A DNA stretch of 64,000 bases from the NCBI GenBank assembly GCA_050015395.1, contig JBEKBM010000003.1, forward strand, positions 64,001-128,000. The letters run 5' to 3'. This DNA is from Candidatus Bathyarchaeia archaeon. GTDB taxonomy: Archaea; Thermoproteota; Bathyarchaeia; Bathyarchaeales; Bathycorpusculaceae. Below are positions 629 to 23,823 of the stretch, piece by piece (the stretch's first letter is position 1; each line of letters opens with the position of its first letter). The position numbers and the translations under genes were made by a program. The notes beneath the pieces were generated by a model. The model did no database searches and had not been told where the DNA came from. It worked only from the letters and a program-made list of their open reading frames with translations.

Positions 629-651
629 TGCAGGAGGTGGGATTCGAACCC
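629..651 (-). repeat. tRNA-Leu 3'-end fragment (att-like direct repeat of 2221-2243)
   Basis: TGCAGGAGGTGGGATTCGAACCC vs TGCAGGGGGTGGGATTTGAACCC, 21/23 identical; T-arm plus acceptor 3' strand. Confidence 0.75.
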
Positions 652-976
652 TCACCATGCTGGAGATATCACCCGCAAACCCCTTTTTTTCTGCTTTACC
701 ATGAATTTCAGCTCTCCTCATTTCGCAAGTGAAATCCGGATGCATAAATCAAAGCAGTCACGGATCTCAACGGGAATCCTGAGAAGGCTTTCAAAGGAAC
801 TCGTGGGAAAACTTTGTTGTCCATCTCAAGAAACAAAATCATAAGGGGACATGATAGTTTTTGGAATATGATAACTTACTTTGATGCTTAACGCGGCGCG
901 GTAAAACCCTGATTACTCCTGTATCGACATCTCTTGAAGTGAAGCAAGCCCTCAAAAAGCGGATTAGAAATCCTGT

Positions 977-1930
977 CTACTTTATCCTTTTTGAGCAGTA
1001 TGGACAGATGTTCACGTCATCTCTAACAGTTCGTTTGCAATGTTGGCATACCCTTGTAAAGTGCGGCTGTTGAATATTAGTTGCCGGCCGATTAATGTTC
1101 GAGGGCTGATATGGCTGATAGGGCTGGTTAATCTTTGAGGGTTGATAGGACTGATAGGGCCGATTAATGTTCGAGGGCTGATAGGGCTTATAGGGCTGAT
1201 AAGGCCGATTAATGTTCGAGGGCTGATATGGCTGATAGGGCCGATTAATGTTCGAGGGCGCGTTAGACGTCATTGACGGAGTTGACGGCCTCGGCTCGTA
1301 ACGTGAGGCTTCCTCATATGGTAACGGTTTTTGTCTGCCGCGCATTACGTATACGGCAGTCATAAAAACAGCGAATGCTATCACAACTGCGGTTATGGCG
1401 ATCGCTAGCGGTGACCAAAATCCGCTGCTGCTCACGGTGACGGGGACATACGGGGTGCTAAACCCTGTTGATCCTGTTGATCCTGTGGACCCTGTGGGTG
1501 TCGCTGTGGGTGTCGCTGTGGGTGTTGGAGCTGTCCCTTGGGTGACGGTAAATGTTGCTGTGGCAACGCCTGTGGACCCCGTAGCGGTAATAGTATACGT
1601 GCCGGGAGATACTGACGGAACTGTGAATTCCTCGTATGCAATACCAATTGCACCTCCTGGTGGTGATATCACGTTTGCTGTCCCGACGTTTGTTGTGTCA
1701 AAGGTGATGCTTACTGAGGAGGATGTAAGGAACCCATTTATCGAGGCCATCACCGTCGTGCCTGCAGGACCCGTGGAAGGACTCAACGTTATGGACTGGG
1801 ACTGGGTTTGTGCCTTCGCCATTGGCGTTATTATTACTGCTAAAGTTAATATGCTTAGAAAAAGTAGAATAAGCGTTGCTTTGCTAAACCTTTTCTCCAT
1901 ATCAATAAAACACTTTTGCAATGCAATCAT
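977..1930 (-). CDS. Single-pass membrane protein: signal peptide, Ig-like (IPT/TIG-like) domain, PT/GST linker, TM, PSNINRPYQ repeats, C-terminal zinc ribbon
   Basis: ITLSPSTGPAGTTV motif; hydrophobic TM; CQHC...CPYC at the C-terminus. Confidence 0.8.
   Translation of the reverse strand: MIALQKCFIDMEKRFSKATLILLFLSILTLAVIITPMAKAQTQSQSITLSPSTGPAGTTVMASINGFLTSSSVSITFDTTNVGTANVISPPGGAIGIAYEEFTVPSVSPGTYTITATGSTGVATATFTVTQGTAPTPTATPTATPTGSTGSTGSTGFSTPYVPVTVSSSGFWSPLAIAITAVVIAFAVFMTAVYVMRGRQKPLPYEEASRYEPRPSTPSMTSNAPSNINRPYQPYQPSNINRPYQPYKPYQPSNINRPYQSYQPSKINQPYQPYQPSNINRPATNIQQPHFTRVCQHCKRTVRDDVNICPYCSKRIK
1086..1259 (-). repeat. Intragenic coding repeats, 4 copies of GGCCGATTAATGTTCGAGGGC
   Basis: Copies at 1086, 1158, 1203 and 1239; spacings 72/45/36 are multiples of 3; encode PSNINRP. 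Confidence 0.85.
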
Positions 1931-2217
1931 ACCTCTCCAAAATTATGTTGTCTTCTCGTAGATATAAGATTTGGCACGCTTCGGTGCGTAAAGTTTTTTA
2001 TCTTTTGAGAGCAGGATACGATAATTGGTGTCTTGTTTTTGCGGTGTCTCTTGGGCAGCTGAATTGCTGTGTTGAGATGTGTTGTCTTTTTCTCCGTGGT
2101 GTTGGAGGAGCGACCTAAGAGGCGCTCTGAGCCTTGAGCGAAATTGAGCAAAAAACCGAGCAAAACCATCATCAGACCCCGAGCCGTTGAGCGTAGAAAC
2201 AACCTTTTTGCTTATGT

Positions 2218-2305
2218 TGGTGCAGGGGGTGGGATTTGAACCCACGAACGCCTACGCGATAGGGTCCTAAGCCCTACTCCGTTGACCAGGCTTGGAGACC
2301 CCTGC
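2218..2305 (-). tRNA. tRNA-Leu(TAG), CCA encoded
   Basis: GCAGGGG/CCCCTGC acceptor, TAGGG-CTTAGGA-CCCTA anticodon arm, long variable arm, GTGGG-TTCAAAT-CCCAC T-arm. Confidence 0.95.
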
Positions 2306-2453
2306 AACTTGTTTATGCGAGTTTATTTTGCTTTCAAGACGAGGTAATCTTTGTACTAACTAATTAATATGAAGCTTTTCCTCAGTTCAGTAGATCCGTA
2401 AGTGGGTTAGCTTTGTGTGCTCTACTTCCTACGGGTAGGTGTAGTTATATACG

Positions 2454-2479
2454 TTTTGACGGTACATTTTGACGGTACA
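2454..2479. repeat. Perfect tandem direct repeat (TTTTGACGGTACA)x2
   Basis: Read directly, between the divergent tRNA-Leu and tRNA-Thr genes. Confidence 0.8.
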
Positions 2480-2758
2480 GTTGGGCTGGCGGTAAAGTTT
2501 GAGTGGTTTCTTGGCTTGGATTGCTCGGGCTTATGCAGGTGAACAGTCTTCGGCGTCGTTGAAGGCTTTCAAGCAGCCTTAAGCTGGCTTGCAACTATGC
2601 TTAGCAAGTAAAAAACGTTATAGCCAAGCAGGTGCCAGACACTTTCGGAACTACCGCAGTTGCAAGAGTTAATTGACTTGCAACATTGCTGTTTGCCGCA
2701 GGTTTAACCGTAAGCATTTTATTGCCAAGAAGCAGTTCTTTCACGGGAACACCCTTGA

Positions 2759-2835
2759 GCCTCGGTAGCCTAGCCCGGTGGGGCGTTACCTTGGTAAGGT
2801 AATGGTCGCGGGTCCAAATCCCGCTCGAGGCTCCA
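2759..2835 (+). tRNA. tRNA-Thr(GGT), CCA encoded, atypical T-loop TCCAAAT
   Basis: GCCTCGG/TCGAGGC acceptor, TTACC-TTGGTAA-GGTAA anticodon arm, GCGGG/CCCGC T-stem. Confidence 0.9.
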
Positions 2836-2844
2836 ATTCCACGC

Positions 2845-3069
2845 TTACTTTTCCGTTAATTCACGGAATTCTTCTTTGGTTAAACCCGCCTGCTGTATGA
2901 TTGCGAGCAGGGTGCCTTTCTTTATAGGGTCATGGCGGGGAACGGTGAGTTTGTGTTTTCCATCGGTTAAAAATATGTGGCTTCCTTTTTGACCAACAAC
3001 TTTGAATCCAGCTTTGTTGAGCGCTTTAATGACCTTTTGCCAGGAAGCGGAGGATAGCTTTTCAGACAG
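2845..3069 (-). CDS. hicA: HicA-family mRNA interferase toxin, apparent CTG start
   Basis: Hand translation (M)SEKLSSASWQKVIKALNKAGFKVVGQKGSHIFLTDGKHKLTVPRHDPIKKGTLLAIIQQAGLT...; GSH and VPxH motifs; overlaps the hicB stop; missed by the ORF track. Confidence 0.9.
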   Translation of the reverse strand: MSEKLSSASWQKVIKALNKAGFKVVGQKGSHIFLTDGKHKLTVPRHDPIKKGTLLAIIQQAGLTKEEFRELTEK

Positions 3070-3286
3070 TTATTTCCACTAGCTCTCTTTTTCGCTTAAG
3101 CTGGTCAAGTTCTTCGGGGAACGCTTCCAGATAACCTTCGATGGCTTCTTTTATGTTGGAAAGGGCTTCTTTACGGTTTTCTCCTTGACTGATTGCTCCG
3201 GGAAGTTCCACACATTGTGCAGAGTATCCGCCTTCTGGTTCCTCCCTAAGAATTACTGTAAACTTTCTACCTTTAATTTCCACCAT
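3062..3286 (-). CDS. hicB: HicB-family antitoxin
   Basis: EPEGGYSAQCVELPGAISQGENRKEALSNIKEAI motif; ATG at 3286 with GAGGAG SD. Confidence 0.9.
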   Translation of the reverse strand: MVEIKGRKFTVILREEPEGGYSAQCVELPGAISQGENRKEALSNIKEAIEGYLEAFPEELDQLKRKRELVEITV

Positions 3287-3398
3287 AAATTCTCCTCTTA
3301 TCATAAAAGACATAGTCTAAACGATATAAACTTTGACGCTAAAAAAATAGTATAGCCGCTTCTTGAAAAACAAATTCGGTGTCTGAAGAGAATTGTAT

Positions 3399-3449
3399 GT
3401 TATCTTGGTAAGGTAATGGTCGCGGGTCCAAATCCCGCCGAAGGCTCCA
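3399..3449 (+). repeat. tRNA-Thr 3'-part direct repeat (att-like copy 1)
   Basis: 47/51 identical to 2785-2835 (anticodon arm through CCA). Confidence 0.9.
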
Positions 3450-3488
3450 TCCGCCTGCCTTCCATAATTAACTTGAGTGCAAGCAAAA

Positions 3489-3512
3489 ATGCATATATAT
3501 GCATATGTGCAT
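3489..3512. promoter_or_regulatory. Palindromic operator upstream of vapB (ATGCATATATATGCAT plus an overlapping near-copy)
   Basis: Perfect 16-bp palindrome at 3489-3504 just before the vapB ATG; typical of TA autoregulation. Confidence 0.6.
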
Positions 3513-3522
3513 AAAATCATGT

Positions 3523-3753
3523 ATGACCAAAGTTATATCCCTCTCGAACGAGGCGTACCAAACTCTGAAGGATTCCAAGAAACCTGGGGAGTCTTTTTCA
3601 GATGTTGTTTTAAGGGTCGTTAAAACGAAAAAAAAGAAGTCGCTACTGGAGTTTTCAGGCAAATGGGCAGGCAACGATATAGACGAAGTGTTTGCGCAGA
3701 TAAAGAAAGATAGAGAGCAATCAGCTTCTCGGCAGGTCGACCTGTTCAAGTGA
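3523..3753 (+). CDS. vapB: VapB-type antitoxin (archaeal DUF217/RHH-like)
   Basis: MTKVISLSNEAYQTLKDSKKPGESFSDVVLR; overlaps the PIN gene. Confidence 0.85.
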   Translation: MTKVISLSNEAYQTLKDSKKPGESFSDVVLRVVKTKKKKSLLEFSGKWAGNDIDEVFAQIKKDREQSASRQVDLFK

Positions 3754-4139
3754 TCCTTGACACAGATTTATTGATTGCTTTACTGAAAGGAGAGACAGAA
3801 GCAAATAAAGCAATGGAACGGTTGGATGAGAATGGCAAACGAGTTGCAACTACAATACTCACGGCATATGAACTTTTGAGAGGAGCATACATTTCATCTA
3901 AACCAGAAAAAAACTTGGCTGAGGTTCATGAGTTGCTATCTAACATAGAGGTTTTAGATTTGACGTTGCAAGCGTGCGAAGAAACCTCTAAGATTTATCG
4001 AGACCTCCGGAAAGCTGGCTGCTTGATTGGCGAATTCGACACTTTGATAGCTGCAATAGCGAAAACGCATGCTGAGACACTTATGACAAGAGATGAACAT
4101 TTCACTCTTATTCGAGGAATAAATGTAGAAGAATGGTAA
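3750..4139 (+). CDS. vapC: VapC PIN-domain toxin
   Basis: ILDTD...YELLRG...FDTLIAA...TRDEHF acidic PIN residues. Confidence 0.92.
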   Translation: MILDTDLLIALLKGETEANKAMERLDENGKRVATTILTAYELLRGAYISSKPEKNLAEVHELLSNIEVLDLTLQACEETSKIYRDLRKAGCLIGEFDTLIAAIAKTHAETLMTRDEHFTLIRGINVEEW

Positions 4140-4158
4140 ACGTCGTTTCCTGTTGTTG

Positions 4159-4185
4159 GGTAAGGTAATGTTCGCGGGTCCAAAT
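4159..4185 (+). repeat. tRNA-Thr fragment direct repeat (att-like copy 2)
   Basis: GGTAAGGTAATGTTCGCGGGTCCAAAT, 26/27 identical to the tRNA. Confidence 0.85.
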
Positions 4186-4429
4186 TGAAGTCATTTTTTT
4201 TTAACCAAATTCACCCGTTTTGCCCTGTGAAAACAATAATCCAGACGCTAAATAAAAAAAGCAACTTAAAATAACCCTGACTAAAAGCGTCTACCTATAG
4301 ACCTACCCTGCTATTTGTAGCAAAAAAACAGCACAAAAAGCAACAACCGCAAAAATCGAAACAAAACCCATTCACGTTTCGAAACGTATAAGAGAAAAAC
4401 TCTGTTTCTCAAATAGCGAAGGCTCAACC

Positions 4430-6712
4430 TTGCGAGTAAAACTCAACGTCACCGGTATTGTTCAAGGCGTCGGTTTCCGCCCATTCATCTACCGCTTAGC
4501 CACAAAAAACGGCTTGGCAGGGTACGTTCGCAACAGGGGCGACGCTGGAGTAGAAATCCTCTTGGAAGGAGACGCGCAACGCATCAAGAGTTTTATGCAT
4601 GACTTAACTGAGAAAAAGCCGCCCTTAGCCCAAATTGATGCGGTTAAGTCTACTGAGCTTTCAGGCAAAAATCAACATGACAAATTCACGATTTATAAGA
4701 GTTCTGAGGAAGCGGAGTTTTCAGGCTCAATTATACCGCCGGACATCGCCATATGTAACGAGTGCCTAGCGGAGCTGCGCGACCCAAAAAACCCGCGTTA
4801 CGAATACTTCTTTATCACCTGCACCAATTGCGGGCCACGCTTCACAATCATCGAACGATTGCCCTACGACCGAGAAAACACCACTATGCGGGAGTTTCCC
4901 CTGTGCGGCTTCTGCCAAAAAGAATACAATGACCCAGCAAACAGGCGGTTTCACGCGCAAACCGTGGCTTGTCCAGAATGCGGTCCAAAAGCCTACTTAA
5001 CAACAAGAACTGGCGAACCAATCAAAGCTAAAGACCCAGTACGTGAAGCGGGAAAACTGTTATCCGAAGGCAATGTGCTTGCAATAAAAGGCTATGGCGG
5101 CTTCCACATTGCAGCATCAACCATGCAAGAGAAGCCTCTGGCGGCGCTTCGAACAACGAAGCATAGGCGCGAAAAACCCTTCGCAATCATGACAAAAAGT
5201 CTTGGGGCAGCAAAAAGTTTCGCCGAAGTAAGTTCGAAGGAGCAAGAACTGCTATCTTCCCCTGCACGCCCAATAGTACTGCTAAACAAAAGCGCCAGTT
5301 ACAATCTTTCACCTTTGGTTGCGCCGAACCTGCACAACGTCGGCGTCATGCTGCCCTACACTGGCTTGCACTACATGCTTTTTGACCGTGTTGATGACTT
5401 GGCGTTTGTGATGACAAGCGCCAACCCGCCAAACCAGCCAATCGTGAACGACAACACTGAAGCACTCAAAACATTAGGCAGCACAGTGGATTATTTCCTG
5501 TTTCACAACCGCAACATTGCCCACCGATGCGACGACTCAGTCATGCGCGTTCATGGTAGTCGCCAAGTGTTTCTTAGGCGAAGCCGAGGTTACGCTCCAG
5601 CACCAATCAGGCTCAAAGCTAAATCAAAACGGTGCGTCGTCGGTTTAGGCGGCGAACTAAACAACACAGCCTGCGTATTGCTTGATGACAAAGCCTTCAT
5701 CAGCCAACACATCGGCGACGTAGAAAACGTCGAAACACGAGCTTTCCTTCAAGAAGCCGCAAATCACCTCTACCAGTTAACCAACTGCCATGCCGAAATC
5801 GTGGTTTGCGATTTGCACCCGAAATTCACCACTACTGCTTTAGCCCAAGAGATGGCGGAAGCGGACGGTTCACCGCTGATTCAGGTGCAACATCACCACG
5901 CGCACGCCGCCGCTTTAATGGCAGAGCACAACTTAGAAGAGGCTGTTACTGTTGTTTGCGACGGGTACGGCTACGGCACGGCTGGCGAGGCTTGGGGCGG
6001 CGAAATCTTGTTTTGCACGCGTGAGTCGGCGGAGTTTAAGCGGCTTGGGCATCTGGAACCGCAACCATTGCTTGGTGGAGATGTGGCTAGCCGTTACCCC
6101 TTGCGTGTAGCCGCTGGAATGCTCGCTAAAGCTGGCGTAGAGGTTGAGCCTTGGCTGATGCAGAACAGTGCGCATTTGCCTTTCGGCGAAACTGAAGCCA
6201 ACCTGATTATTGGCCAACTTGCAAAAGGCTTTGGAACGGTTGAAACTACGAGTTGCGGCAGAGTTTTAGACGCGGTTGCTGCCGTTTTAGGCGTATGTTA
6301 CGAGCGCAGTTATGAGGGTGAGCCAGCCATGAAACTGGAATCAGCCGCGGTAAATGGCAAAGATGTTTTGAACCTAAAGCCAATCTTGCATGGAGGCATG
6401 CTGGATACTACGACCATGCTGAGATCAATCTTTGAAAACAAAGAGAACTTATCCATAGGCGATTTAGCTTATTCTGCTCATGCTTACTTGGCAAAAGGTT
6501 TAGCTTCTTTAGCGGTAGAGAAAGCTTTGGTGCTAGGCGTTAGAGACGTTGGCTTTTCGGGTGGCGCTGCCTGCAACCAGATACTTGCTAAAGTCATGCG
6601 TGAGATTGTTGAGGAGGCTGGGCTGTGGTTTCTGGTTCATGAGGCTGTTCCAGCTGGGGACGGGGGAGTTTCGTTCGGTCAGGCAGTTGTAGGTGGATTT
6701 TCACGGTTTTAG
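4430..6712 (+). CDS. hypF: [NiFe]-hydrogenase maturation carbamoyltransferase
   Basis: GIVQGVGFRPF acylphosphatase domain, two CxxC-x18-CxxC zinc fingers, QHHHAH, GDGG. Confidence 0.97.
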   Translation: MRVKLNVTGIVQGVGFRPFIYRLATKNGLAGYVRNRGDAGVEILLEGDAQRIKSFMHDLTEKKPPLAQIDAVKSTELSGKNQHDKFTIYKSSEEAEFSGSIIPPDIAICNECLAELRDPKNPRYEYFFITCTNCGPRFTIIERLPYDRENTTMREFPLCGFCQKEYNDPANRRFHAQTVACPECGPKAYLTTRTGEPIKAKDPVREAGKLLSEGNVLAIKGYGGFHIAASTMQEKPLAALRTTKHRREKPFAIMTKSLGAAKSFAEVSSKEQELLSSPARPIVLLNKSASYNLSPLVAPNLHNVGVMLPYTGLHYMLFDRVDDLAFVMTSANPPNQPIVNDNTEALKTLGSTVDYFLFHNRNIAHRCDDSVMRVHGSRQVFLRRSRGYAPAPIRLKAKSKRCVVGLGGELNNTACVLLDDKAFISQHIGDVENVETRAFLQEAANHLYQLTNCHAEIVVCDLHPKFTTTALAQEMAEADGSPLIQVQHHHAHAAALMAEHNLEEAVTVVCDGYGYGTAGEAWGGEILFCTRESAEFKRLGHLEPQPLLGGDVASRYPLRVAAGMLAKAGVEVEPWLMQNSAHLPFGETEANLIIGQLAKGFGTVETTSCGRVLDAVAAVLGVCYERSYEGEPAMKLESAAVNGKDVLNLKPILHGGMLDTTTMLRSIFENKENLSIGDLAYSAHAYLAKGLASLAVEKALVLGVRDVGFSGGAACNQILAKVMREIVEEAGLWFLVHEAVPAGDGGVSFGQAVVGGFSRF

Positions 6713-6762: not shown

Positions 6763-6987
6763 ATGTGTTTAGCAATTCCCGCCAAAGTAATGAATGTTGA
6801 CGGCAGCAAAGCCAACGTGGATTTCGGTCAAGGCGTGCTTCGGGAAGTTAACGTGTCGCTTGTTGAGGCTAAAGTGGGCGATTACGTTCTGGTTCACGCT
6901 GGCTACGCTATTCAAGTTATCGAAGAAAAAGAAGCCTTAGAAACCCTGAGCTTATGGAATAGCATTCTTGAAGCTACCCCACAATAA
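6763..6987 (+). CDS. hypC: Hydrogenase maturation chaperone
   Basis: MCLAIPAKV...GDYVLVHAGYAI. Confidence 0.97.
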   Translation: MCLAIPAKVMNVDGSKANVDFGQGVLREVNVSLVEAKVGDYVLVHAGYAIQVIEEKEALETLSLWNSILEATPQ

Positions 6988-7008
6988 AGCAGCAGGTGAG
7001 CGATAGGC

Positions 7009-8097
7009 ATGGCTGAAAACCTAAAGTTCAGAAACCCCGAACTGGCGCAAAATATAGCGTCAAAAATCAAAAGCTTAGCGCCGAAAGCTGGAAAAATAAA
7101 AATCTGCCACGTCTGCGGAACCCACGAGTGGACAATAACGCATTATGGCTTGCGTAGTCTTTTGCCTGAGAATGTTGAGGTTATTGCTGGTCCAGGATGC
7201 CCCGTTTGCATTGTGCCAGCGGCTGAAATTGATGAAGCTGTACAGTTAGCACAGATGGGCATCGTGGTCACATGTTTCGGTGACGTGTTGCGTGTGCCCG
7301 GTAGCCAAATGTCGCTTTTAGAGGCTAAAGCGGCTGGCGCTGACGTCCGAATTGTATATGCGGTTTCTGACGCGGTTGAAATGGCAAAACATGAGCCCCA
7401 GAAGCAGTTTGCATTTTTCGCGGTCGGTTTCGAAACCACTGCTCCATCAACAGCGGTCGAAGCACTCGGCAACCCGCCAAAAAACCTTAGTTTTCTAGTT
7501 TCTCACCGTTTGATTCCTCCAGCCATGGAGCTGCTGCTCGGTGTGGGCGATTTGCAGATTGACGGTTTCATTGCGCCGGGGCATGTGAGTGCGATTATTG
7601 GTTTGAAGCCTTATGAGTTGTTTCCAAGGGTTTATCGGATGCCAACGGTTGTGGCTGGTTTTGAGCCGATTGACGTGTTGATGGCTATTTACATGATTGT
7701 AAAGCAGCAAAGCGAAGGGACGGCTAAGCTGGAGAATGAGTATCCGCGTGTGGTTAAGCCTGAAGGCAACATAAAGGCGCTGGAAATGATGAATAAAGCG
7801 TTCACTGTCACAGGCGGCAACTGGCGTGGCATCGGCAGGCTTCCAGACTCAGCGTTGCAGTTGCGTGAGTCGCTTGCAGATTACGATGCAAGGTTAAAAT
7901 ATGGTGTCCATGTAGAGCAGGGCAAAGATATACTGCTTGGCTGCGAATGCCACCTAGTAATCATCGGAAAAATCAAGCCCGACGAGTGCCCTATGTTCTT
8001 AAAGGCTTGCACGCCCGAGAAACCCGTCGGCGCATGCATGGTCAGCAACGAAGGCACCTGCAGGGTCTGGGCAAAAAACGTGGCTGCCCAAGGGTAG
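7009..8097 (+). CDS. hypD: Hydrogenase maturation protein
   Basis: VCGTHE, GPGCPVC, GFETT, PGHVS, CMVSNEGTC. Confidence 0.97.
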   Translation: MAENLKFRNPELAQNIASKIKSLAPKAGKIKICHVCGTHEWTITHYGLRSLLPENVEVIAGPGCPVCIVPAAEIDEAVQLAQMGIVVTCFGDVLRVPGSQMSLLEAKAAGADVRIVYAVSDAVEMAKHEPQKQFAFFAVGFETTAPSTAVEALGNPPKNLSFLVSHRLIPPAMELLLGVGDLQIDGFIAPGHVSAIIGLKPYELFPRVYRMPTVVAGFEPIDVLMAIYMIVKQQSEGTAKLENEYPRVVKPEGNIKALEMMNKAFTVTGGNWRGIGRLPDSALQLRESLADYDARLKYGVHVEQGKDILLGCECHLVIIGKIKPDECPMFLKACTPEKPVGACMVSNEGTCRVWAKNVAAQG

Positions 8098-8246
8098 GGC
8101 GAGCCATTGTATGACGATTCATTTACCTTGTGGACAAAAATCCGATTAAACACTTTACTAATTTGTCGAAGTGAGGAACACAAAGGGCTTAGCGCAAGTC
8201 ATAAATCGTTGGGCGCTGAATAGAATAATTGTTCGGGGCATATACA

Positions 8247-9173
8247 ATGAATTATTGGTTTATTGTTCACGGTTTAAAGGCTTATGAGCAACATAATGAT
8301 TTGATCGGCTGTAGATTGAAAAAGCCTGGTGTTCATGAACCTTGGTTCAAACAGTTCTCTGAAATCAAGAAGGGTGATAAGATTGTTTATTATGCAACTG
8401 GAAGCAATGTTATCGTTGGAATTTTTGTTATAGATTCCGACATGAGATATCTTCCTAATGACCCTTACTGGGATGACATGGTTTTTGACATCCGACCAAT
8501 AGAAATGCCTCCAAACGGTTACTACATGGACTTCAAGAAAGCGATCTCCATTGACAAACGAGCCAACTTTGACTTATTTCCTAAGAAGGAAACATGGTAT
8601 TCGTATCTACAGGGTAAGCCATGTAGGAAACTCTCAGAGCATGATTTTTTGATAATGAAAGACTATTTACGAAGAAGCGAATTGTTGGTTAAAATAAATG
8701 ATGTAAAACCGCCTGAAACAAAGAAGCCGAAAGACCTCATTGGAGAAGTGGAAAATAACAAATCATCTTTGCATGATTCATTTATTGATTCTCTGGTTAC
8801 AATCGGCGAGATTTTTGGCTTCGAATCAATAAGAAAGCCGAGCGTTAATGATTTGAGGCCCGAGGGTCAGCCATTCAAAGCTAAAGACAAGGCACTAGAT
8901 CTTGCTTGGAAGATTTTTGGCTTAACGTATGTTCCTTTCGAAGTGCAAGTCCATGGTAGCGTCCCCGATTTGATTTATAGGCTACATATGGTTCATCAAT
9001 GGTCCCTTAAGATTGTAGTTATTGCTGATGAAGAATGGCATGAAGAGATATTAGAAGCTGCGCAAGTGTACCCTTTTGCGGGAAAGCTGGTTTTAATTAA
9101 GCCTAAGGAAATAGAAAGTGCAAAAAGCAATTTTGAGGAATTAAAAAAACTGCGTCAAAAAATATTTGAATAG
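8247..9173 (+). CDS. EVE-domain protein with a C-terminal PD-(D/E)xK-like nuclease domain
   Basis: MNYWF...IKKGDKIVYY...IVGIF...YLQG (EVE); LDLAW...FEVQ nuclease-like motif; AT-rich. Confidence 0.7.
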   Translation: MNYWFIVHGLKAYEQHNDLIGCRLKKPGVHEPWFKQFSEIKKGDKIVYYATGSNVIVGIFVIDSDMRYLPNDPYWDDMVFDIRPIEMPPNGYYMDFKKAISIDKRANFDLFPKKETWYSYLQGKPCRKLSEHDFLIMKDYLRRSELLVKINDVKPPETKKPKDLIGEVENNKSSLHDSFIDSLVTIGEIFGFESIRKPSVNDLRPEGQPFKAKDKALDLAWKIFGLTYVPFEVQVHGSVPDLIYRLHMVHQWSLKIVVIADEEWHEEILEAAQVYPFAGKLVLIKPKEIESAKSNFEELKKLRQKIFE

Positions 9174-9252
9174 GCTTTTTCGAGGCTGATTTTCTTCTTT
9201 ATTTTTTTTGTGTTAGCCATTCAATGTATCTGTCCATGATGAATCAAGAGAT

Positions 9253-10320
9253 TTAGCAGATTCTTGGCACTGGGTCGCCTATGGGTCTTGCGATTATTCT
9301 TTTGCCGCCGACCTCTGTTTGCATGGCGACGCCTTTGAATTGTGTTGTGGCTTCGCCGATTATCTGCGCGTTTTTGCCCTCTTCCGTCTGCTTCAAAAAT
9401 TCCAGTGCTTCCTGCGCCTTCTCGTGAACGATGCCGATTATGTATTTTCCCTCATTTCCAACTTCCAGCGGGTCTAACCCAAGCATATCGCAAGCTGTTT
9501 GCACGTCCTGTCGAATGGGAACTTTGTCTTCATGTGTTAAAATGCCGACTTTTGATTTCTCAGCCCACTCATTAAGCGCATCAGCCAACCCACCTCTAGT
9601 CGGGTCTTTCACTGAGACTACTCCGCCTACCTCGCCCAGTAAGCGTTGCGTCATGCGGTTGAGCGGTCGCACATCCGACTTTATTTCGCTCCCGAAAGTC
9701 AAGCCCTGCTGCGCCGAAAGCACAGCTAACCCGTGGTCGCCGATTGTGCCAGTCAAGATGATTTTATCGCCCGCCACAAGGTTCGAGTCAAGCGTCCAAC
9801 GTGAGGCAACGCTTCGGTATTGCCGAGCCACTTTTATGTCGCTGTCTAAGGCGGGTGTTCTTTTGCCTATGCCTGAAACGTTCATGACCAAGCCGCCTAA
9901 ACTGCCCTTCTCCACCACCTTCGTGTCGCCCGTGACGATGCCGACGCCTGCTTCAATGCAGGTTTCCCGCATACTTACCAAAATCCTTTCTAAATCAGCA
10001 AGCGGCAAGCCTTCCTCCAAAATAAAACCGCAAGCCAACGCGTAAGGCTGCGCGCCCATAGCTGAAATATCATTAACGGTGCCTGAAATTGCCAAGCGCC
10101 CAATGTCACCGCCCGGGAAAAATATGGGTTTAACCGCGTGAGAATCACTCTTAAACACCACATCGCCGATGACTGCGGCGTCATCCATAGCTTCCAATGG
10201 CACCTCAGCATCGTTGCCTAAACCGCCAAAATATTTTACAATATAGTTTTTGACTAGGTTGTGCATGACTGTGCCGCCAGCACCATGCAGCATGGTGATC
10301 TTTTCGTTTTTGCTTGGCAT
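9253..10320 (-). CDS. hypE: Hydrogenase maturation carbamoyl dehydratase
   Basis: HGAGG, DSHAVKPIFFPGGDIG, GDTKVV, DPTRGGL, C-terminal PRIC. Confidence 0.97.
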   Translation of the reverse strand: MPSKNEKITMLHGAGGTVMHNLVKNYIVKYFGGLGNDAEVPLEAMDDAAVIGDVVFKSDSHAVKPIFFPGGDIGRLAISGTVNDISAMGAQPYALACGFILEEGLPLADLERILVSMRETCIEAGVGIVTGDTKVVEKGSLGGLVMNVSGIGKRTPALDSDIKVARQYRSVASRWTLDSNLVAGDKIILTGTIGDHGLAVLSAQQGLTFGSEIKSDVRPLNRMTQRLLGEVGGVVSVKDPTRGGLADALNEWAEKSKVGILTHEDKVPIRQDVQTACDMLGLDPLEVGNEGKYIIGIVHEKAQEALEFLKQTEEGKNAQIIGEATTQFKGVAMQTEVGGKRIIARPIGDPVPRIC

Positions 10321-13494: not shown

Positions 13495-14388
13495 ATGCAA
13501 GATACTAAACGAGTAAAAAATCCTGATAAACAACGAAAAAAGCTTTTTAACGCTCCTGCTCACCTGCGCCACAAGCGTATGGCGGCTCCCCTATCAAACG
13601 AGCTCGCTGCTTCAAGAGGCGCAAAAACTCTTCCAGTAAGAAAGGGCGACACAGTTCGCATTCAACGCGGAGACAACAAGGGCTTTGAAGGCAAAGTTTC
13701 ACGCGTTGACACGAAAGAATACCGAATCTACATTGAAGGGTTTACACGTGAAAAGGTTGATGGTACAAACATTTTCCTTCCAGTTCACCCGTCCAAAGTT
13801 GAAATAAGAAATCTCAACCTTGACGATAAATGGCGAAAAGACATCATCCTTGGCAGAAAGAAGGAAATAGAAAAGCCTGAGAAAAAAGAAAAAGAAAAAG
13901 CAAAACCATCAAAGAAAGTTGAAAAGACTCCAGAGCAGCCGCAAGCAAAGGTTGAAGAGATAGAAGAAGAAAAACCTGTTGAAGCACCATCAATTGAAGA
14001 AAAAGCAGCAGCGCCTGAAATTGCAAAAGAAGAAGCACCAGCAGAACAAGTTCCTGAGAAAGTAGCAGAGAAGGCAGTGGAAAAAGCTCCAGCAGCCAAG
14101 AAGCCTGCAGCAAAGAAAGCGCCAGCCAAGAAGCCTGCAGCCAAGAAGCCTGTAGCCAAGAAACCTGCCGCTAAAAAAGTAGCCGCAGCGAAAAAGAAAC
14201 CTGCCAAGGAAGAAGCTCCGGTAGAAGAAGAAAAGGCGCCTGCTAAAAAGGCAGCAAGGCCAAGGACAGCAGCAAAGAAAACAGCTGCATCGAAAGAAGC
14301 ACCAGCAAAAGAGGCGGTAGCCAAGAAAACGGCGCCTAAGCCGCGTGCTAAACGTAAAACCTCTAAAGAAACTGAGGGAGGACAATAA
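13495..14388 (+). CDS. rpl24: 50S ribosomal protein L24 (uL24) with a long Lys/Ala/Pro/Glu-rich extension
   Basis: PDKQRK, VRKGDTV, HPSKVEI; tail with AKKPAAKK repeats. Confidence 0.95.
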   Translation: MQDTKRVKNPDKQRKKLFNAPAHLRHKRMAAPLSNELAASRGAKTLPVRKGDTVRIQRGDNKGFEGKVSRVDTKEYRIYIEGFTREKVDGTNIFLPVHPSKVEIRNLNLDDKWRKDIILGRKKEIEKPEKKEKEKAKPSKKVEKTPEQPQAKVEEIEEEKPVEAPSIEEKAAAPEIAKEEAPAEQVPEKVAEKAVEKAPAAKKPAAKKAPAKKPAAKKPVAKKPAAKKVAAAKKKPAKEEAPVEEEKAPAKKAARPRTAAKKTAASKEAPAKEAVAKKTAPKPRAKRKTSKETEGGQ

Positions 14389-16267: not shown

Positions 16268-16278
16268 GGGTGTAATTT

Positions 16279-17893: not shown

Positions 17894-17894
17894 G

Positions 17895-18548: not shown

Positions 18549-19189
18549 GTCGAATGCACAGAGAAAGACAAACTAACTTAGAAACTTGGGTTCCAAAAAC
18601 CCGTTTGGGCAAGATGATTCAGGAAGGCAAAATAACAACCATTGAAGATGTCTTCCTTAGCGGCATAAAAATTTCTGAGCCCCAAATCGTTGACTCGTTA
18701 ATTCCTGATCTTCAAGAAGAAGTCATAAACGTTAACTTAGTACAGAAGCAAACTGATGCTGGCGAAAAATCCCGTTTCAAAGCCATAGTTGCCGTTGGAA
18801 ACAGAGACGGCTACATTGGCTTAGGCTCAGGAAAAGCCAGTCAAGTGCGAAACGCCATTGAGAAAGCTGCTGTGAATGCTCGCCTAAACATTATTCCAGT
18901 AAAACGCGGATGCGGAAGTTGGGAGTGCGGTTGCGGTAAACCTCATTCAGTTCCGTTCCAAGTTGAAGGGAAATGCGGCGGCGTACGAGTGGTTATTGTT
19001 CCGGGACCCAGAGGCTTAGGCTTAGTTTCAAGTGAAGTAGCCAAAGTCATCTTTGGCTTAGCTGGCGTGAAAGACTTGTGGATGAGAAGTTTTGGTTCAA
19101 CACGGACAGTGCCGTCTTACGCGTATGCGATCTTTGATGGTTTACGGAAGACTTATAATTTGATTACTCAAGTGGACTGGGTGAAGTAA
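18545..19189 (+). CDS. rps5: 30S ribosomal protein S5 (uS5)
   Basis: WVPKTRLGK, GCGSWECGCG, PGPRGLGLV. Confidence 0.97.
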   Translation: MSRMHRERQTNLETWVPKTRLGKMIQEGKITTIEDVFLSGIKISEPQIVDSLIPDLQEEVINVNLVQKQTDAGEKSRFKAIVAVGNRDGYIGLGSGKASQVRNAIEKAAVNARLNIIPVKRGCGSWECGCGKPHSVPFQVEGKCGGVRVVIVPGPRGLGLVSSEVAKVIFGLAGVKDLWMRSFGSTRTVPSYAYAIFDGLRKTYNLITQVDWVK

Positions 19190-19190
19190 G

Positions 19191-19679
19191 ATGGCGCAGA
19201 AAACTGAAGAGTGCAAGTGCCTTGTCGTCGTTAAAGTTCGTGGTACAATTAGTGCCCAGCGAGAAACACGAGAAACCCTTGAATTCTTGCATTTACTGCA
19301 TACCAACCATGCAGTACTCATTGATAGCCGACCATCATACAAGGGAATGCTGCAACGCGTAAACAGCTACGTCACATATGGCGAACCCTCAAAAGAAACC
19401 GTTGCCATGATGCTTCAGAAACGCGCAAGGTTAGCAGGCGACAAAAAACTAACAGATGAATACATCAAGAAAGCAGGATACAAATCCATCGATGACCTTG
19501 CAGAAGCCATAGTAAACTGCAAAGTGCAATTCCAGAAACTTCCAGATGTGCAGCCACTATTCAAGTTGCATCCGCCAAGCAAAGGCTACAAGGGCAAAAC
19601 CAAGAAAGGCTTCAAAGCAGGCGGCGAAGCAGGCTACCGCGGAGAAGCAATAAACGAACTAGTAAAACGCATGATTTAA
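19191..19679 (+). CDS. rpl30: 50S ribosomal protein L30 (uL30)
   Basis: VKVRG, LHPPSKG, GYRGEAINEL. Confidence 0.96.
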   Translation: MAQKTEECKCLVVVKVRGTISAQRETRETLEFLHLLHTNHAVLIDSRPSYKGMLQRVNSYVTYGEPSKETVAMMLQKRARLAGDKKLTDEYIKKAGYKSIDDLAEAIVNCKVQFQKLPDVQPLFKLHPPSKGYKGKTKKGFKAGGEAGYRGEAINELVKRMI

Positions 19680-19805
19680 TCTCCCGTTTAAACATAGTTT
19701 TTTTTATTTAGCTTAAATTTTTTAGGTAAATCTTAAATGCAAAGAGCCGACTAGAGAGAATAACTAAGCACGGTGAGAAAATGGATTTAGTTGAGGTTTC
19801 ATTTA

Positions 19806-20360
19806 ATGGCTAAAGCTACAATTATTGCGGAAGGTTGGATTCAAAGCGTTGGGTACCGTGCTTTCGTTAAACGTGTTGCTAGTCAGCTTGGATTAAAGGG
19901 GCTTGTGAGGAATTTGCCTGATGGAATGGTTGAAATTTTTTGTGAAGGCGATTTGCCCAAGATTGACCTGCTTTTGAAAAAGATGGATTATAAGGGCAAA
20001 AAAGACGATGCCTTGAGCGCTTATGTTGAAAACTTGAGCATTTACAGAGAGGGTGAGAAAGGATACGTTGGTCCTTGGAAAGAATACAAGGGATTTGAAA
20101 TTGATTATGGTTTTAACGTTGCTTCGCCTGTAGATCGGGCACTAATTGAGTACTTAGAAAGCGGAACGTTGTATGTTGTTTCTTTAAAAGACGAATTTGC
20201 AATGTATAGAAAAGAAACAAATGATAACTTTGAAACGATGGAAGCAAAATATAGTTCAATTTCTGAAGAGATGAAGAAAATAAATATAACTTTAGAAAAG
20301 CTTGCAGATGCCTACGTAAAAAGACAATCACAAACTGTCTGCGCCTTTGGCTTGAATTAA
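19806..20360 (+). CDS. Acylphosphatase-family protein with a C-terminal helical extension
   Basis: GWIQSVGYRAFV...GLVRNLPDGMVEIFCEG; ~80 extra C-terminal residues. Confidence 0.8.
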   Translation: MAKATIIAEGWIQSVGYRAFVKRVASQLGLKGLVRNLPDGMVEIFCEGDLPKIDLLLKKMDYKGKKDDALSAYVENLSIYREGEKGYVGPWKEYKGFEIDYGFNVASPVDRALIEYLESGTLYVVSLKDEFAMYRKETNDNFETMEAKYSSISEEMKKINITLEKLADAYVKRQSQTVCAFGLN

Positions 20361-20624
20361 AACTGCAAATCTAAAAGCCAGAATTACCATGCTGATTTAG
20401 CGTTTGAACGCTATCGCTTTAGTTCGCTAACTGACTAATTTTGATGCATGAGATAGCTAACTTAATTTTTTTTTTGATTTTTTGATAGTGATAGACTCCG
20501 AGTGCTTGAGTTTTTTGACCGCGGAATTCGCGCGCGCTTAATCCACAGCTAATAAGCCCATCTCCTTAAAAGCAGCCGAGAAAACAATTAAAGGGCGGGC
20601 AACTGAGCCCGATTCTTTTGTTGA

Positions 20625-20666
20625 TGGTGCCGAGGGTGGGACTTGAACCCACGAAGGTCTACGCCA
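20625..20666 (-). repeat. tRNA-Leu(TAA) 3' fragment (distal att-like copy)
   Basis: 39/42 identical to 23700-23741; variable arm, T-arm, acceptor and CCA. Confidence 0.9.
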
Positions 20667-20671
20667 AATGT

Positions 20672-21025
20672 CTAGCCTGTTTTAATAGCAATCGGCTTCT
20701 CGCTTTCTTCAACCTGTTTTTCCATTGCCTTTCTTGAAATAGTCATATCAAGCCTAATCAATTGTTTCACAATGTCGTTAGCTCTGTCAAGCTTGTACAG
20801 CGTTGCTCTTCCGATTTTACGGGTTGCTATCAGAGATCCCGACTGCTCAAGTTCTTTCCAATACTTGAAAAACGTTGCCCTGCTCATAGCGAGATTTTTT
20901 GCCGCCTCATTTTTTGAGTAATCAGAAAGCGGGTTATCTAAGAAGAAATCGATGATTCTTAACGTTGGGCTATCTCCCAAGTATTTGAGCAATAGTGTTT
21001 CATCCGCTTTGTAAGCCGTTCCCAT
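20672..21025 (-). CDS. Winged-helix DNA-binding protein
   Basis: LGDSPTLRIIDFF...SKNEAAKNLAMSRATFFKYWKEL...TRKIGRATLYKL. Confidence 0.8.
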   Translation of the reverse strand: MGTAYKADETLLLKYLGDSPTLRIIDFFLDNPLSDYSKNEAAKNLAMSRATFFKYWKELEQSGSLIATRKIGRATLYKLDRANDIVKQLIRLDMTISRKAMEKQVEESEKPIAIKTG

Positions 21026-21038
21026 ATCAAAACACCTG

Positions 21039-21401
21039 CTAACGGTAACTAAACCTTGCGTCCTTAGGTGTTAAGTCCAACGCGTCGGCGATCATTTCCT
21101 TAACGAGCGGCCTTTTTCTAACTTTTTGAAACTCCTCAGGAGTATACATTAGCAGATCCAACTCTTCAACAAATGACCAATATTCCAGAAGTATCTTTCC
21201 CCGCTCAAGACTGGTTAGACCCATGAAGCTTTTCGAAACAACTATCAAATCGATGTCGCTATCTGTTTTTCTTTTTTGTTTGGCTGTTGAGCCGAAAAGA
21301 AAGACTTTTTCAAGTCCTATTTTTGCATCAACAACTTTCAGAAATTCTTTCAGTTTATCCATTAAGGGCCTGTTGTCGTCAAGCACTAAAGCCTTCGTCA
21401 A
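21039..21401 (-). CDS. Minimal nucleotidyltransferase (MNT) antitoxin
   Basis: FLFGSTAK...DSDIDLIVVS; YTPEEF. Confidence 0.9.
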   Translation of the reverse strand: MTKALVLDDNRPLMDKLKEFLKVVDAKIGLEKVFLFGSTAKQKRKTDSDIDLIVVSKSFMGLTSLERGKILLEYWSFVEELDLLMYTPEEFQKVRKRPLVKEMIADALDLTPKDARFSYR

Positions 21402-21826
21402 GTCCTTTCCTCCTCAATCCTTGCCTTAATAACTTTGATGATGGGCAAAGCTTTTGTCATGAATTCATCCACGACGGCTTTAGTGTAGATATCACTGGGC
21501 AGTTCAAGAGTAGCATCAAAATATCTCGTTTCTCGAACGGCCAATGATAGTTGTCTGAGAAAACGAATTTGCTCTTCGGTTAGTTCGACCTTGTCAGCTA
21601 TTTTCGAATGTAATTCAACCAAATTATGCACCTTAGGAGGAGCCGCTTTCTTCAACACAACGATAGCTGCCTTCAAGGATTTTTCAACAGTCAAATGAAG
21701 CCAGAAAGCTACGACGGGATATGCCTCGCAGCTAATAACTTTCTCCAGCATTCTTAAAGAATCATCCAAATCCTTAAGCCATAATTGAATGTATTCATTA
21801 GAGAATGTGCTAGTTTTTTTTGTCAT
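21398..21826 (-). CDS. HEPN-domain protein (HEPN-MNT toxin-antitoxin module)
   Basis: HLTVEKSLKA, PPKVHNL, TRY; overlaps the MNT start. Confidence 0.88.
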   Translation of the reverse strand: MTKKTSTFSNEYIQLWLKDLDDSLRMLEKVISCEAYPVVAFWLHLTVEKSLKAAIVVLKKAAPPKVHNLVELHSKIADKVELTEEQIRFLRQLSLAVRETRYFDATLELPSDIYTKAVVDEFMTKALPIIKVIKARIEEERT

Positions 21827-21889
21827 TTGACTCTGAGTACAAGATAACTTTCTTACTATTTTGATTTTTCTATCTTCCAAAATTACGGC

Positions 21890-21955
21890 GGTGCCGGGGG
21901 TGGGACTTTTGAACCCACGAAGGCCTGCGCCAGAGGATCTTAAGTCCTCCTCCAT
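21890..21955 (-). repeat. tRNA-Leu(TAA) 3'-exon copy (proximal att-like copy)
   Basis: Identical to 23701-23764 except for a 2-nt insertion in the T-loop. Confidence 0.92.
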
Positions 21956-22180
21956 CTCGATTATGAGAGAGGTATTCTCAAAAAAACTTTAAGCAGAGGA
22001 ATGACTAGGACTGAACAAGCCTTTAGAAAAAGAACTTGGTGAGTATTTATCAGAAAAACGAGGCTGGCCATGGACTCTTACTTGCTTTATTATTAACTCA
22101 TGCAACGAAAGCAATAAAGACAAGATTAAATGAGACGTTTTTCTTCTTTAAGCGTGTGTTATCTATTTGATTTTAATTAA

Positions 22181-23422
22181 CTATTTCAGATTGTGCATCT
22201 TTTTGAAATCATAAATATTCGCTTGGTAATTCCTAGTTTTGAATTTTGCTATTTTTTCAGATATCTTCTCGGTTCCAAAATCCATGAACTTATCTGCAAC
22301 AGCGTAACCTAATCCGGCTAGTAAACCCAACTTGCCAATAGGTCCGGCAGCTACACTACCAATAGCGGCCATCGAAAGAGGAATTCCAACCTGCAAATTT
22401 TTTATTCGGTTAACTATTGTTTTATCGTTCCAGATTGAGTCCAGTATTTCCGAAAAATCTCTAACATTCTCATTTATCAAGTCTGGTTTCCCCACCACAA
22501 TTGCCTCGTTCAATGATTCTTGTACTTTTTTTAGGTCATATGAATCATAATGATACATGATATCCTTGCAGGCGTCAAATCCCATGGGGGCATACGTTAA
22601 CTTGTTTAGGAGAAATTTTCCTATCTCGCACGGAAGCTCTATTTTAGGCTGATAGGGCTTTGGCAATATTTTAGCGTCGATTATGTCGCTGAGCGTGAAG
22701 CTCTGTACGTCGCAAAGAAAGTCACCAATTGGGTTAGTAATGAACATTCGGCATTCGGTAAGCAGAGAATCAGCCTCTTCAGGGTTATCTATCATTAGGT
22801 TCTCAATATCCTCGGCTATGGGAAAGTGACAAGTTTTTAGGGTTACATAAGTGTGATAATCGTCAACTAAAACTTCCTCAAATAAGTGAGATTGATAGAT
22901 GTTTAGCCGCTTAAGCCAATCAAAGTACTTAATTTTACCTATCGAAGTAAAGGATTCATATGCTTTCTTAACCTCTACACGATTGGCCCAGCAAGAAAGC
23001 GGCGCAACCACATACCATGGAGGATTCAACTGCTCAAAAAAAGTATCCAAGTGACTCTTGCCCTCATAAAAAAGCGGATCGTTAATTAGTACAAATTGTA
23101 TTTTGCCGGTTTCCTTGACAAAATCGATTAGTTTCTGGGCTTCCTTTATCTTAAAAAAACTACTTTCATAAACTTCTAATGGCCAAGGTGCGAGTGGCAG
23201 AATAAGGGAACCACAAAAAGGAATTTGAGCCCATACATTGTTGATTTGAGCACTTTCTAGCGAAGTCATTGCCACAGGTTTTTGTAAATTAAAAAAGCGT
23301 TCTCTTGGAGGGTACTTGTCTTTTGTGCCATCGAATTGACCATTTTCTATTCGCTTTACCAACAATCTATTGTAAATGTCCAACTCTTTCTGCTTATATT
23401 CTTCAAGATACTTTCGATCCAA
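22181..23422 (-). CDS. Hypothetical protein, 413 aa, AT-rich cassette cargo with a C-terminal Gly/Ala-rich hydrophobic segment
   Basis: Long ORF filling the interval between two tRNA-Leu repeats; no family recognised. Confidence 0.75.
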   Translation of the reverse strand: MDRKYLEEYKQKELDIYNRLLVKRIENGQFDGTKDKYPPRERFFNLQKPVAMTSLESAQINNVWAQIPFCGSLILPLAPWPLEVYESSFFKIKEAQKLIDFVKETGKIQFVLINDPLFYEGKSHLDTFFEQLNPPWYVVAPLSCWANRVEVKKAYESFTSIGKIKYFDWLKRLNIYQSHLFEEVLVDDYHTYVTLKTCHFPIAEDIENLMIDNPEEADSLLTECRMFITNPIGDFLCDVQSFTLSDIIDAKILPKPYQPKIELPCEIGKFLLNKLTYAPMGFDACKDIMYHYDSYDLKKVQESLNEAIVVGKPDLINENVRDFSEILDSIWNDKTIVNRIKNLQVGIPLSMAAIGSVAAGPIGKLGLLAGLGYAVADKFMDFGTEKISEKIAKFKTRNYQANIYDFKKMHNLK

Positions 23423-23699
23423 AACGCCAACCTGACCTTCTTCTCAAATGTATTGTTCTTTATCCATATTAGGTTTTATAAAATGGTCAAAAAGGAGCTT
23501 ACTCATTCTTTTCTAAAATTTATGGCTTTTTAAGTATATCTGCTACGCTGATATTCAGGGGAAGCGCTATCTCCGACGCTATTTTCAGTTTTCCCCATTA
23601 ACGCAAGAATCGGAAGGGCTGTTTTGCAACATGATTCATGAACTGGGCAGAAGAAAGATCTCAATCTAAGGGATAAACCCAAAACCATTTTTGCCATAG

Positions 23700-23823
23700 T
23701 GGTGCCGGGGGTGGGACTTGAACCCACGAAGGCCTGCGCCAGAGGATCTTAAGTCCTCCTCCATATCTTAGGCAATCAATTTTTTCTGGCTGCCTATTTG
23801 GACCTGGCTCGGGTACCTACTGC
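23700..23823 (-). tRNA. tRNA-Leu(TAA) locus with a 35-nt intron at position 22/23; 5' acceptor strand does not pair (possible pseudogene)
   Basis: GAGGA-CTTAAGA-TCCTC anticodon arm; D-arm TACCCGAGCCAGGTCCAA; intron 23763-23797 folds as a hairpin with a relaxed BHB; spliced length matches tRNA-Leu(TAG). Confidence 0.7.

Follow-up and report, generated by a model that had tools for sequence, protein, structure and literature searches.

How do short DNA segments that encode no integrase come to lie, one behind another, between a tRNA gene and partial copies of that same tRNA? The question is raised by a 64,000-nt stretch of the genome of a Candidatus Bathyarchaeia archaeon (assembly GCA_050015395.1, contig JBEKBM010000003.1, positions 64,001 to 128,000; hereafter the window), in which three arrays of gene cassettes are delimited by tRNA sequences. 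The reading we favour, at a probability of roughly 0.55, is that integrase-less cassettes carrying an attachment site (att) are put at tRNA 3' ends by SSV-type integrases acting in trans, with decay of integrase-bearing elements in situ as an additional process. The window belongs to contig C3 of G000, a metagenome-assembled genome (MAG) of 2.59 Mb in 42 contigs with 3.3% contamination, and it was compared with 120 genomes of the genus. The outline given in a preliminary description of the window stands. Cassettes of 563, 701-709, 1224, ~1740 and 1566 bp were found; they are closed by direct copies of tRNA 3' parts (3399-3449, 4151-4185, 20625-20666, 21891-21958 and 624-651, respectively), and six-frame searches of the genome with PF00589 and PF16795 gave no match inside the window. 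Pfam was run on 10 open reading frames (ORFs) of the window and on 30 of the 47 listed ORFs outside it, and yielded type II toxin-antitoxin pairs of three kinds, namely HicA with HicB (HicB weak), VapB with PIN, and NTP_transf_2 with HEPN.

The array that carries most of the argument starts at tRNA-Thr(GGT) (2759-2835, plus strand; ARAGORN and Rfam). Directly behind the tRNA lies a 563-bp cassette (2836-3398, minus strand) with hicA (2845-3069, minus strand; HicA_toxin, 1.6e-18) and hicB (3062-3313, minus strand; HicB_lk, weak at 1e-5). It is followed by a plus-strand copy of tRNA-Thr positions 27-77 (3399-3449; 47 of 51 positions matching), whose acceptor is of the CGAAGGC type while that of the resident tRNA-Thr is TCGAGGC. 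The second cassette (3450-4150, plus strand; 701-709 bp) carries vapB (3499-3753, plus strand; VAPB_antitox, 1.6e-16) and vapC (3750-4139, plus strand; PIN, 6.9e-20). The oldest boundary of the array is a truncated plus-strand copy found by BLAST (4151-4185; tRNA positions ~35-61), within which the stretch 4159-4185 matches tRNA-Thr at 26 of 27 positions.

The hicAB cassette was found behind three different tRNA genes. Among the 14 hicAB loci examined, the pair lies 1-14 nt behind tRNA-Thr(GGT) in eight, behind tRNA-Thr(CGT) in three (G003, G046 and G130), behind tRNA-Thr(TGT) in one (G020) and without a nearby tRNA in one (G094); the fourteenth, in G047, is another Thr(GGT) case, with a further cassette in between. 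The layout recurs, with the hicA stop codon 1-14 nt from the end of the tRNA, a spacer of ~80 bp and an att copy of the GGT type. Distal copies were analysed in 12 of these loci. The distal copies of G003 and G046, where the local tRNA is Thr(CGT), and of G020, where it is Thr(TGT), show the anticodon loop of the GGT type, TTGGTAA, and agree with the local tRNA at no more than 27-29 of 52 positions. The tree of the hicAB region has a midpoint root only; in it the three cassettes behind Thr(CGT) make up a clade (100/99), which joins G000 and G115 (97/93) among the GGT-located ones, and the TGT-located cassette stands apart. The last 16 nt, CCCGCTCGAGGCTCCA, are common to tRNA-Thr(GGT), tRNA-Thr(CGT) and tRNA-Thr(TGT), and it is in this stretch that the exchange must have taken place. 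In the SSV-type elements of relatives, described below, the tRNA is separated from the cargo by the coding region of the N-terminal integrase moiety, Int(N). This arrangement, taken with the same minimal layout at three tRNAs, means that an already integrase-less hicAB moved with its att copy. These sequence comparisons show that the minimal hicAB cassette changed tRNA genes in one piece, its att copy included. At the hicAB locus of G086 (L041, 1849-2525) the pair lies not between a tRNA and a fragment but between two complete 77-nt copies of tRNA-Thr(GGT), both called by ARAGORN and identical over their 3' 52 nt.

Cassette content also varies at the orthologous tRNA-Thr(GGT), the kind of locus at which the preliminary description had proposed to compare cassette order. 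No Thr(GGT) 3' copy is listed near the tRNA in G003 and G019. The tRNA is followed by vapBC alone and then hypF in G004, by hicAB in G002, G115 and G119, and by hicAB and then vapBC in G000 and G111. G047 has a further 1.26 kb between tRNA and hicAB, and other inserts of 2.3-7 kb are present in G010, G013, G014 and G016. At two of the loci compared (L008 and L009), neither of which has an ARAGORN call, the tRNAs were placed by BLAST from full-length matches of 93.5-98.9%. These stacks agree with the claim that the newest cassette stands next to the tRNA: from G004 through G000 and G111 to G047 each additional cassette lies on the tRNA side, an order consistent with entry beside the tRNA. The vapBC pair occurs in many genomes of the genus at 67-77% nucleotide identity; between G000 and G004 it is 66.5% identical, as against 91.8% for the neighbouring hypF, and vapBC cassettes were therefore not simply co-inherited with their flanks. 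In unitigs, three different continuations begin exactly at the tRNA-Thr 3' end (2833-2836).

An empty site was found for the array at tRNA-Leu(TAG) (2218-2305, minus strand; ARAGORN and Rfam). Its single cassette, 1566 bp long and without an integrase (652-2217, minus strand), encodes a 317-aa membrane protein with PYQPSNINR-like repeats and a C-terminal zinc ribbon (977-1930, minus strand; ORF and Pfam). The distal, attR-like boundary is a diverged copy, ~28-31 nt long, of the tRNA 3' end (624-651, minus strand), recognized from the sequence and by comparison with G019. In G019 the left flank of the window (1-651) joins the 3' end of tRNA-Leu(TAG) exactly, and the 1566-bp segment is therefore a precise insertion; G003 likewise has no such segment at this tRNA. 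The preliminary description had cargo filling the cassettes almost edge to edge. This holds for the stop codons of hicA (9 nt from the tRNA), of the winged helix-turn-helix (wHTH) gene of the third array (5 nt from its repeat) and of vapC (11-19 nt from its repeat), but not for the Leu(TAG) cassette, whose non-coding edges measure 325 and 287 bp.

The window stretch is present in peat and wetland metagenome runs, 24 in all and each in the form of Logan contigs, which hide strand, ends and rare forms. A joint of position 541 to 2218, sought with a side of 30, occurs in contigs of three of four runs at a depth of 54-60, as against ~5-25 within the cassette. It probably stems from co-occurring relatives such as G019 and was counted as presence/absence polymorphism only. 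A back-joint of 2243 to 661 in run X24 was considered as a circle junction. Its depth is 4.6 and 2.4, with 9 other letters between the two sides, and it was not counted as it fits equally well a strain with a more tRNA-like distal fragment. Between tRNA-Leu(TAG) and tRNA-Thr(GGT) lies a repeat of ~275 bp (2387-2660) resembling a miniature inverted-repeat transposable element, with at least six further copies in G000 at 93-95% (on C26, C14, C31, C33, C6 and C1) besides diverged ones. It is missing from the orthologous site of G019 and G003 and is present elsewhere in G019.

The third array differs in its platform. Three tRNA loci had been described; Leu(TAG) and Thr(GGT) are true genes, but the third is a truncated, ectopic and foreign-looking copy of tRNA-Leu(UAA). 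This head copy (23697-23817, minus strand; 121 nt, placed by BLAST) runs from tRNA position 6 to the 3' end and includes the D-loop intron. It lacks positions 1-5, and no pairing is possible between its 5' strand and the acceptor sequence CCCCGGC on the 3' side; it has no ARAGORN call and reaches 22.8 bits in Rfam, under the gathering score of 29 bits for tRNA. The head copy is 5'-truncated and is not a functional tRNA gene. Behind it follow a ~1740-bp interval (21959-23696, minus strand) with a 413-aa ORF (22181-23422) without a Pfam match, a 66-68-nt copy with one indel that covers tRNA-Leu(UAA) from anticodon arm to 3' end (21891-21958, minus strand; BLAST), and a 1224-bp interval (20667-21890, minus strand) in which Pfam identifies wHTH (20672-21025), MNT nucleotidyltransferase (21039-21401) and HEPN (21398-21826) genes. 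A 42-nt copy of the 3' part of tRNA-Leu(UAA) forms the distal boundary (20625-20666, minus strand; BLAST). The intact tRNA-Leu(UAA), with its D-loop intron, is located at C16:43116-43238 and has two cassettes of its own. This gene (L050) is missed by ARAGORN and is likewise below the Rfam gathering score (22.8 bits). An interpretation of 23697-23823 as a split or trans-spliced tRNA was dropped given the intact gene on C16.

The head copy shares 98% identity with the Leu(UAA) gene of other species (G004 and G095) and only 93% with G000's own. The whole array is inserted directly behind the ribosomal-protein operon, at a site with no tRNA gene. The corresponding site measures 303 bp in G003 and 57 bp in G019 and holds other inserts in G004 and G130; no tRNA fragments were found at this hot spot in G003, G130 and G004. 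For the ~1740-bp interval the 150 of 243 match rows listed over the 120 genomes contain one DNA-level relative only, G014 at 67%. The wHTH gene and a short fragment form a unit at genuine Leu(UAA) arrays of G019, G004, G130 and G087, and MNT/HEPN occurs apart from wHTH in G016, G087 and G020; in the window the two modules are only 13 bp apart, with no tRNA fragment between them. At the right edge of the array a repeat of ~120 nt (24082-24205), which may mark the hot spot, is multi-copy in G087, occurs also in G004, G019 and G130, and has partial copies in G000. A 15-nt periodic repeat in the ribosomal-protein cluster (14059-14342) encodes a lysine/alanine-rich, AAKKP-like tail.

The genome-wide scan for tRNA-fragment repeats that the preliminary description had proposed extended the pattern beyond the window. 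Comparison of all tRNA genes with the genome of G000 gave 51 fragments outside tRNA genes and 23 intervals bounded by a tRNA or fragment. All 14 fragments that share a contig with their best-matching tRNA are in direct orientation, with 3' fragments downstream of the parent tRNA and a few 5' fragments upstream. This orientation, with BLAST E-values of 1e-6 to 1e-45 for the tRNA repeats against the whole genome, indicates that the repeats are not due to chance. The statement that distal copies are shorter than proximal ones is correct in the window, but not in the array on C25, where the fragments measure 32, 53 and 26 nt. An integrase-like gene is present in one of the 23 intervals, a 470-aa ORF located 16 bp from a tRNA-Asn fragment with a PF00589 score of 23.6 bits, below cut-off. 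By Pfam, the interval cargo includes two hicAB pairs, one vapBC pair, two MNT/HEPN pairs, an NYN protein, an AAA_15/AAA_21 ATPase pair, a TIR protein, an Mrr nuclease, a 994-aa Eco57I/MmeI-type enzyme, an 840-aa UvrD helicase, and HNH and LAGLIDADG proteins, together with ordinary-looking genes (radical SAM, a PALP enzyme, a histidine kinase and others).

Two further kinds of locus occur in G000. An array of five tRNA-Ser(CGA) fragments at C22:16649-22616 (L051) has no intact gene, which is located on C30; ARAGORN merged two of its pieces into one tRNA gene with a 1014-nt 'intron', and the cargo along it includes MNT/HEPN, a TIR protein and an Mrr nuclease. At Thr-TGT, Thr-CGT and Pro-TGG the direct copies are of the 5' part and lie upstream, instead of 3' copies downstream (C16:38194-39177, C7:90381-92571 and C5:114755-119106), which suggests a second type of integrase targeting tRNA 5' halves.

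Which enzyme, then, could act at the tRNA 3' ends? The search for a stand-alone integrase of the XerA or SSV type, also proposed earlier, was partly rewarded. In G000 itself the six-frame screening of the whole genome gave only weak matches (six to PF00589, all on other contigs, and two to PF16795), but relatives carry, in elements of 4.6-7.1 kb at the same tRNA-Thr att, a split integrase with the architecture of the SSV ('suicidal') type. In G014 a 7.1-kb element occupies the att of tRNA-Thr(GGT). Its Int(N) ORF, with a CxxC motif, reads through the tRNA, and the C-terminal moiety, Int(C), is a 270-aa ORF whose frame is open from inside the distal 45-nt fragment. It matches PF16795 (Phage_integr_3, 'Archaeal phage integrase') at an E-value of 1e-4, below the cut-off. 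The scores for the relatives' enzyme are 22.7 and 19.9 bits, under the curated cut-off of 27 bits; the location of attP inside the ORF supports the predicted assignment to the SSV type. As cargo the same element (L012) encodes an ABC-3C-like defence pair (6785-9529), made up of an HNH+CTD10 protein and a DUF2326/CTD10 ATPase. G016 has the G014-type integrase gene in two decayed pieces, and in a 4.6-kb element on a different MAG contig Int(N) adjoins the tRNA and Int(C) the fragment; the Int(N)/Int(C) split is seen in the relatives' elements L012, L013 (decayed) and L019. In L018 (19135-20243) two SSV-type elements stand in tandem, and the Int(N) of one runs on the same strand into the att and the divergent Int(C) (31% to the query) of the next. 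The result is a hybrid integrase gene such as Badel et al. modelled.

With Int(C) as query, a narrower search of related loci had given three loci only; the subsequent search of the genus gave a match in 54 of 120 genomes at E <=1e-5, ranging from intact ORFs of 300-380 aa to stop-ridden pieces. A six-frame PF00589 search in five relatives found no integrase inside their tRNA-Thr elements. This is a false negative, since the family is of the SSV type and is visible by ORF reading and weakly by PF16795. When the window cassettes were searched by tblastn with the relatives' integrase, only the tRNA-encoded stretch matched, and no Int(N) or Int(C) moiety was found.

In the mechanism that we propose, an SSV-type ('suicidal') integrase encoded by other elements of the genus would be expressed from their episomal form and would recombine the att of a circular cassette with a tRNA 3' end. 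The recombination would rebuild the tRNA, and part of its sequence would remain as a copy on the far side of the cassette. Later cassettes would enter beside the tRNA while older att copies and integrase moieties decay, and toxin-antitoxin and defence cargo would be retained through addiction or selection. Integrase-bearing elements would be trapped and decay ('gene capture') alongside the movement of cassettes. For suicidal integrases, PMC7253208 reports that integration in vitro needs the enzyme and att, and nothing else, and that excision proceeds without a helper. We infer the acting enzyme, its action in trans and the circular intermediate alike; a circle, acted on by an integrase provided in trans, would be the most plausible form in which the minimal cassettes moved. 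A broader version, in which toxin-antitoxin and defence cassettes below 2 kb throughout this Bathyarchaeia genus circularise by their att and are re-inserted at the 3' ends of many tRNAs by SSV-type integrases that transient elements provide in trans, we advance tentatively and at somewhat less than even odds. If it were true, tRNA genes would be distributed attI-like platforms, and cassettes would be minimal passengers of integrases unable to act for the trapped elements that encode them.

A number of observations weigh against movement in trans. The supposed helper is absent from the genome studied, as G000 has no homologue of the Thr-type Int(C) in the genus search at E <=1e-5 or by tblastn. 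No excised circle was demonstrated in the Logan contigs searched, the sole back-joint being ambiguous. Relocation as a unit is documented for one cassette family only, hicAB, and even there a distal copy was not found within 760 nt in three of the 12 loci (G055, G089 and G130). The 317-aa gene of the Leu(TAG) cassette has homologues in G003, G094, G076 and G078 that sit away from tRNA-Leu, the one in G078 adjoining a Thr(GGT) fragment and an Int(C) gene. Several distal att copies, among them 4151-4185 and a 14-nt copy in G019, are truncated or degenerate and unlikely to work as sites. The model does not explain the ectopic Leu(UAA) array at its non-tRNA site, and the reassortment of wHTH and MNT/HEPN without a fragment between them means that modules also reassort by other routes. 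Lastly, the preliminary description had allowed that the cassettes might be only deletion remnants of integrase-bearing elements, and this is borne out in part by decayed Int(C) pieces within the Thr arrays of G013, G106 and G016, from which it follows that decay of such elements contributes. She et al. reportedly described 'gene capture' as the trapping and decay of integrase-bearing elements. Taken to its limit, the idea would make every interval a deletion leftover of a formerly complete element that became trapped when its split integrase gene was inactivated, and no cassette would ever have moved. Split and decaying integrases inside the same arrays of relatives, eroding distal att copies, the missing cognate integrase of G000 and the long non-coding edges of some cassettes are all as this fossil record would have them, and integrase loss after integration is described for archaeal elements in PMC8371274. 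But with Int(N) between tRNA and cargo, decay must delete to the same base pairs three times to leave one minimal hicAB architecture behind three different tRNA-Thr genes, and tblastn finds no integrase remnant in the window cassettes; as a complete account we consider it unlikely.

The degree to which vapBC has diverged beyond hypF is also what would be expected of allele replacement between conserved flanks, and cassettes might be shuffled by homologous recombination or gene conversion after DNA uptake, with no site-specific recombinase. The homologies available are the 16-nt isoacceptor 3' end, the tRNA copies and the flanking core genes. Such a process would accommodate modules that reassort without fragments between them, as well as an ectopic array set between conserved genes where G004 and G130 have different inserts and G003 and G019 none. 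Yet 16 nt would be short for recombination, the breakpoints fall exactly at the tRNA 3' terminus, where the three unitig continuations begin, and an integrase family that uses exactly this att is abundant in the genus, so that we hold exchange of this sort to be distinctly improbable as the source of the arrays. That the arrays are an assembly artefact or a chance similarity, as the fragmentation and contamination of the MAG might make one suspect, is hardly credible: unitigs from other metagenome runs are identical to the window over the junctions 1838-2247, 2806-3248 and 3410-4500, the same architectures are found in the single-contig genomes G003 and G014, and E-values reach down to 1e-45. 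Insertion of att-carrying cassettes by SSV-type integrases in trans, accompanied by decay of integrase-bearing elements, is the reading that we retain.

If this reading is true, cassette-type gene shuffling would extend from bacteria, with their integrons, cis-mobilizable elements (CIMEs) and integrative mobile elements exploiting Xer (IMEX), to archaea, where a different enzyme family would act and tRNA genes would be the platforms. 'Suicidal' integrases would gain a use beyond their own elements, and the fast turnover of toxin-antitoxin and defence genes in an abundant uncultured lineage of soil and peat would be explained. For annotation there is also a warning: in such genomes a tRNA call that looks 'extra', or that has an intron, is in many cases an att scar.

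How does the system compare with those already known? In the literature searched we found no report of integrase-less cassette arrays below 2 kb at archaeal tRNAs; prior descriptions concern large integrase-bearing elements and bacterial CIMEs. With SSV-type elements the window cassettes share an att that is the 3' part of a tRNA duplicated as direct repeats, and relatives have, at the same att, elements with an integrase gene that extends across attP and is broken in two when the element integrates. Unlike such elements, the window cassettes measure 0.56-1.7 kb, have neither Int(N) nor Int(C), and stand in tandem. For the Thermococcales set, Badel et al. 2020 (PMC7253208) report that tandem insertions were never observed. 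That tyrosine recombinases can build arrays of integrated elements is generally known (PMC6563490 and PMC8371274). The host, a mesophilic lineage of peat Bathyarchaeia, is a further difference from the SSV-type elements.

CIMEs are bacterial att-flanked elements that accrete at the att sites of integrative and conjugative or integrative and mobilizable elements. The window cassettes resemble them as att-flanked segments without recombination genes and, by analogy, as tandem occupants of a tRNA-type site that would rely on the integrase of a neighbouring or incoming element. The evidence for such mobilisation is indirect, namely the relocation of hicAB with its att copy and the frequency of the integrase family in the genus. 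The window cassettes differ in having no cognate integrase-bearing partner in the same array of G000, in their archaeal host and SSV-type integrase, and in their far smaller, single-operon cassettes. IMEX exploit host Xer recombinases at dif, and PMC6563490 cites Das et al. 2013 for arrays. These too are integrase-free, depend on a recombinase encoded elsewhere and form tandem arrays at one site, but the site here is a tRNA 3' end instead of dif, and the enzyme likely comes from a mobile element and not from the host Xer system. Chromosomal superintegrons are rich in toxin-antitoxin cassettes, and integrons of archaea are the subject of a preprint (10.1101/2022.02.06.479319). The likeness to integrons extends to arrays of cassettes below 2 kb, a recombination site for each cassette, the newest cassette beside the platform and frequent toxin-antitoxin cargo. 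The designation 'integron-like' given in the preliminary description nevertheless holds by analogy only. No intI lies beside the array, the six PF00589 matches of the genome being on other contigs; there is no attI and no hairpin-forming attC, the boundaries being direct copies of tRNA 3' parts; and the platform is a functional tRNA gene, a role in which many tRNAs serve. By this comparison the system resembles integron cassettes and CIMEs but is not an integron.

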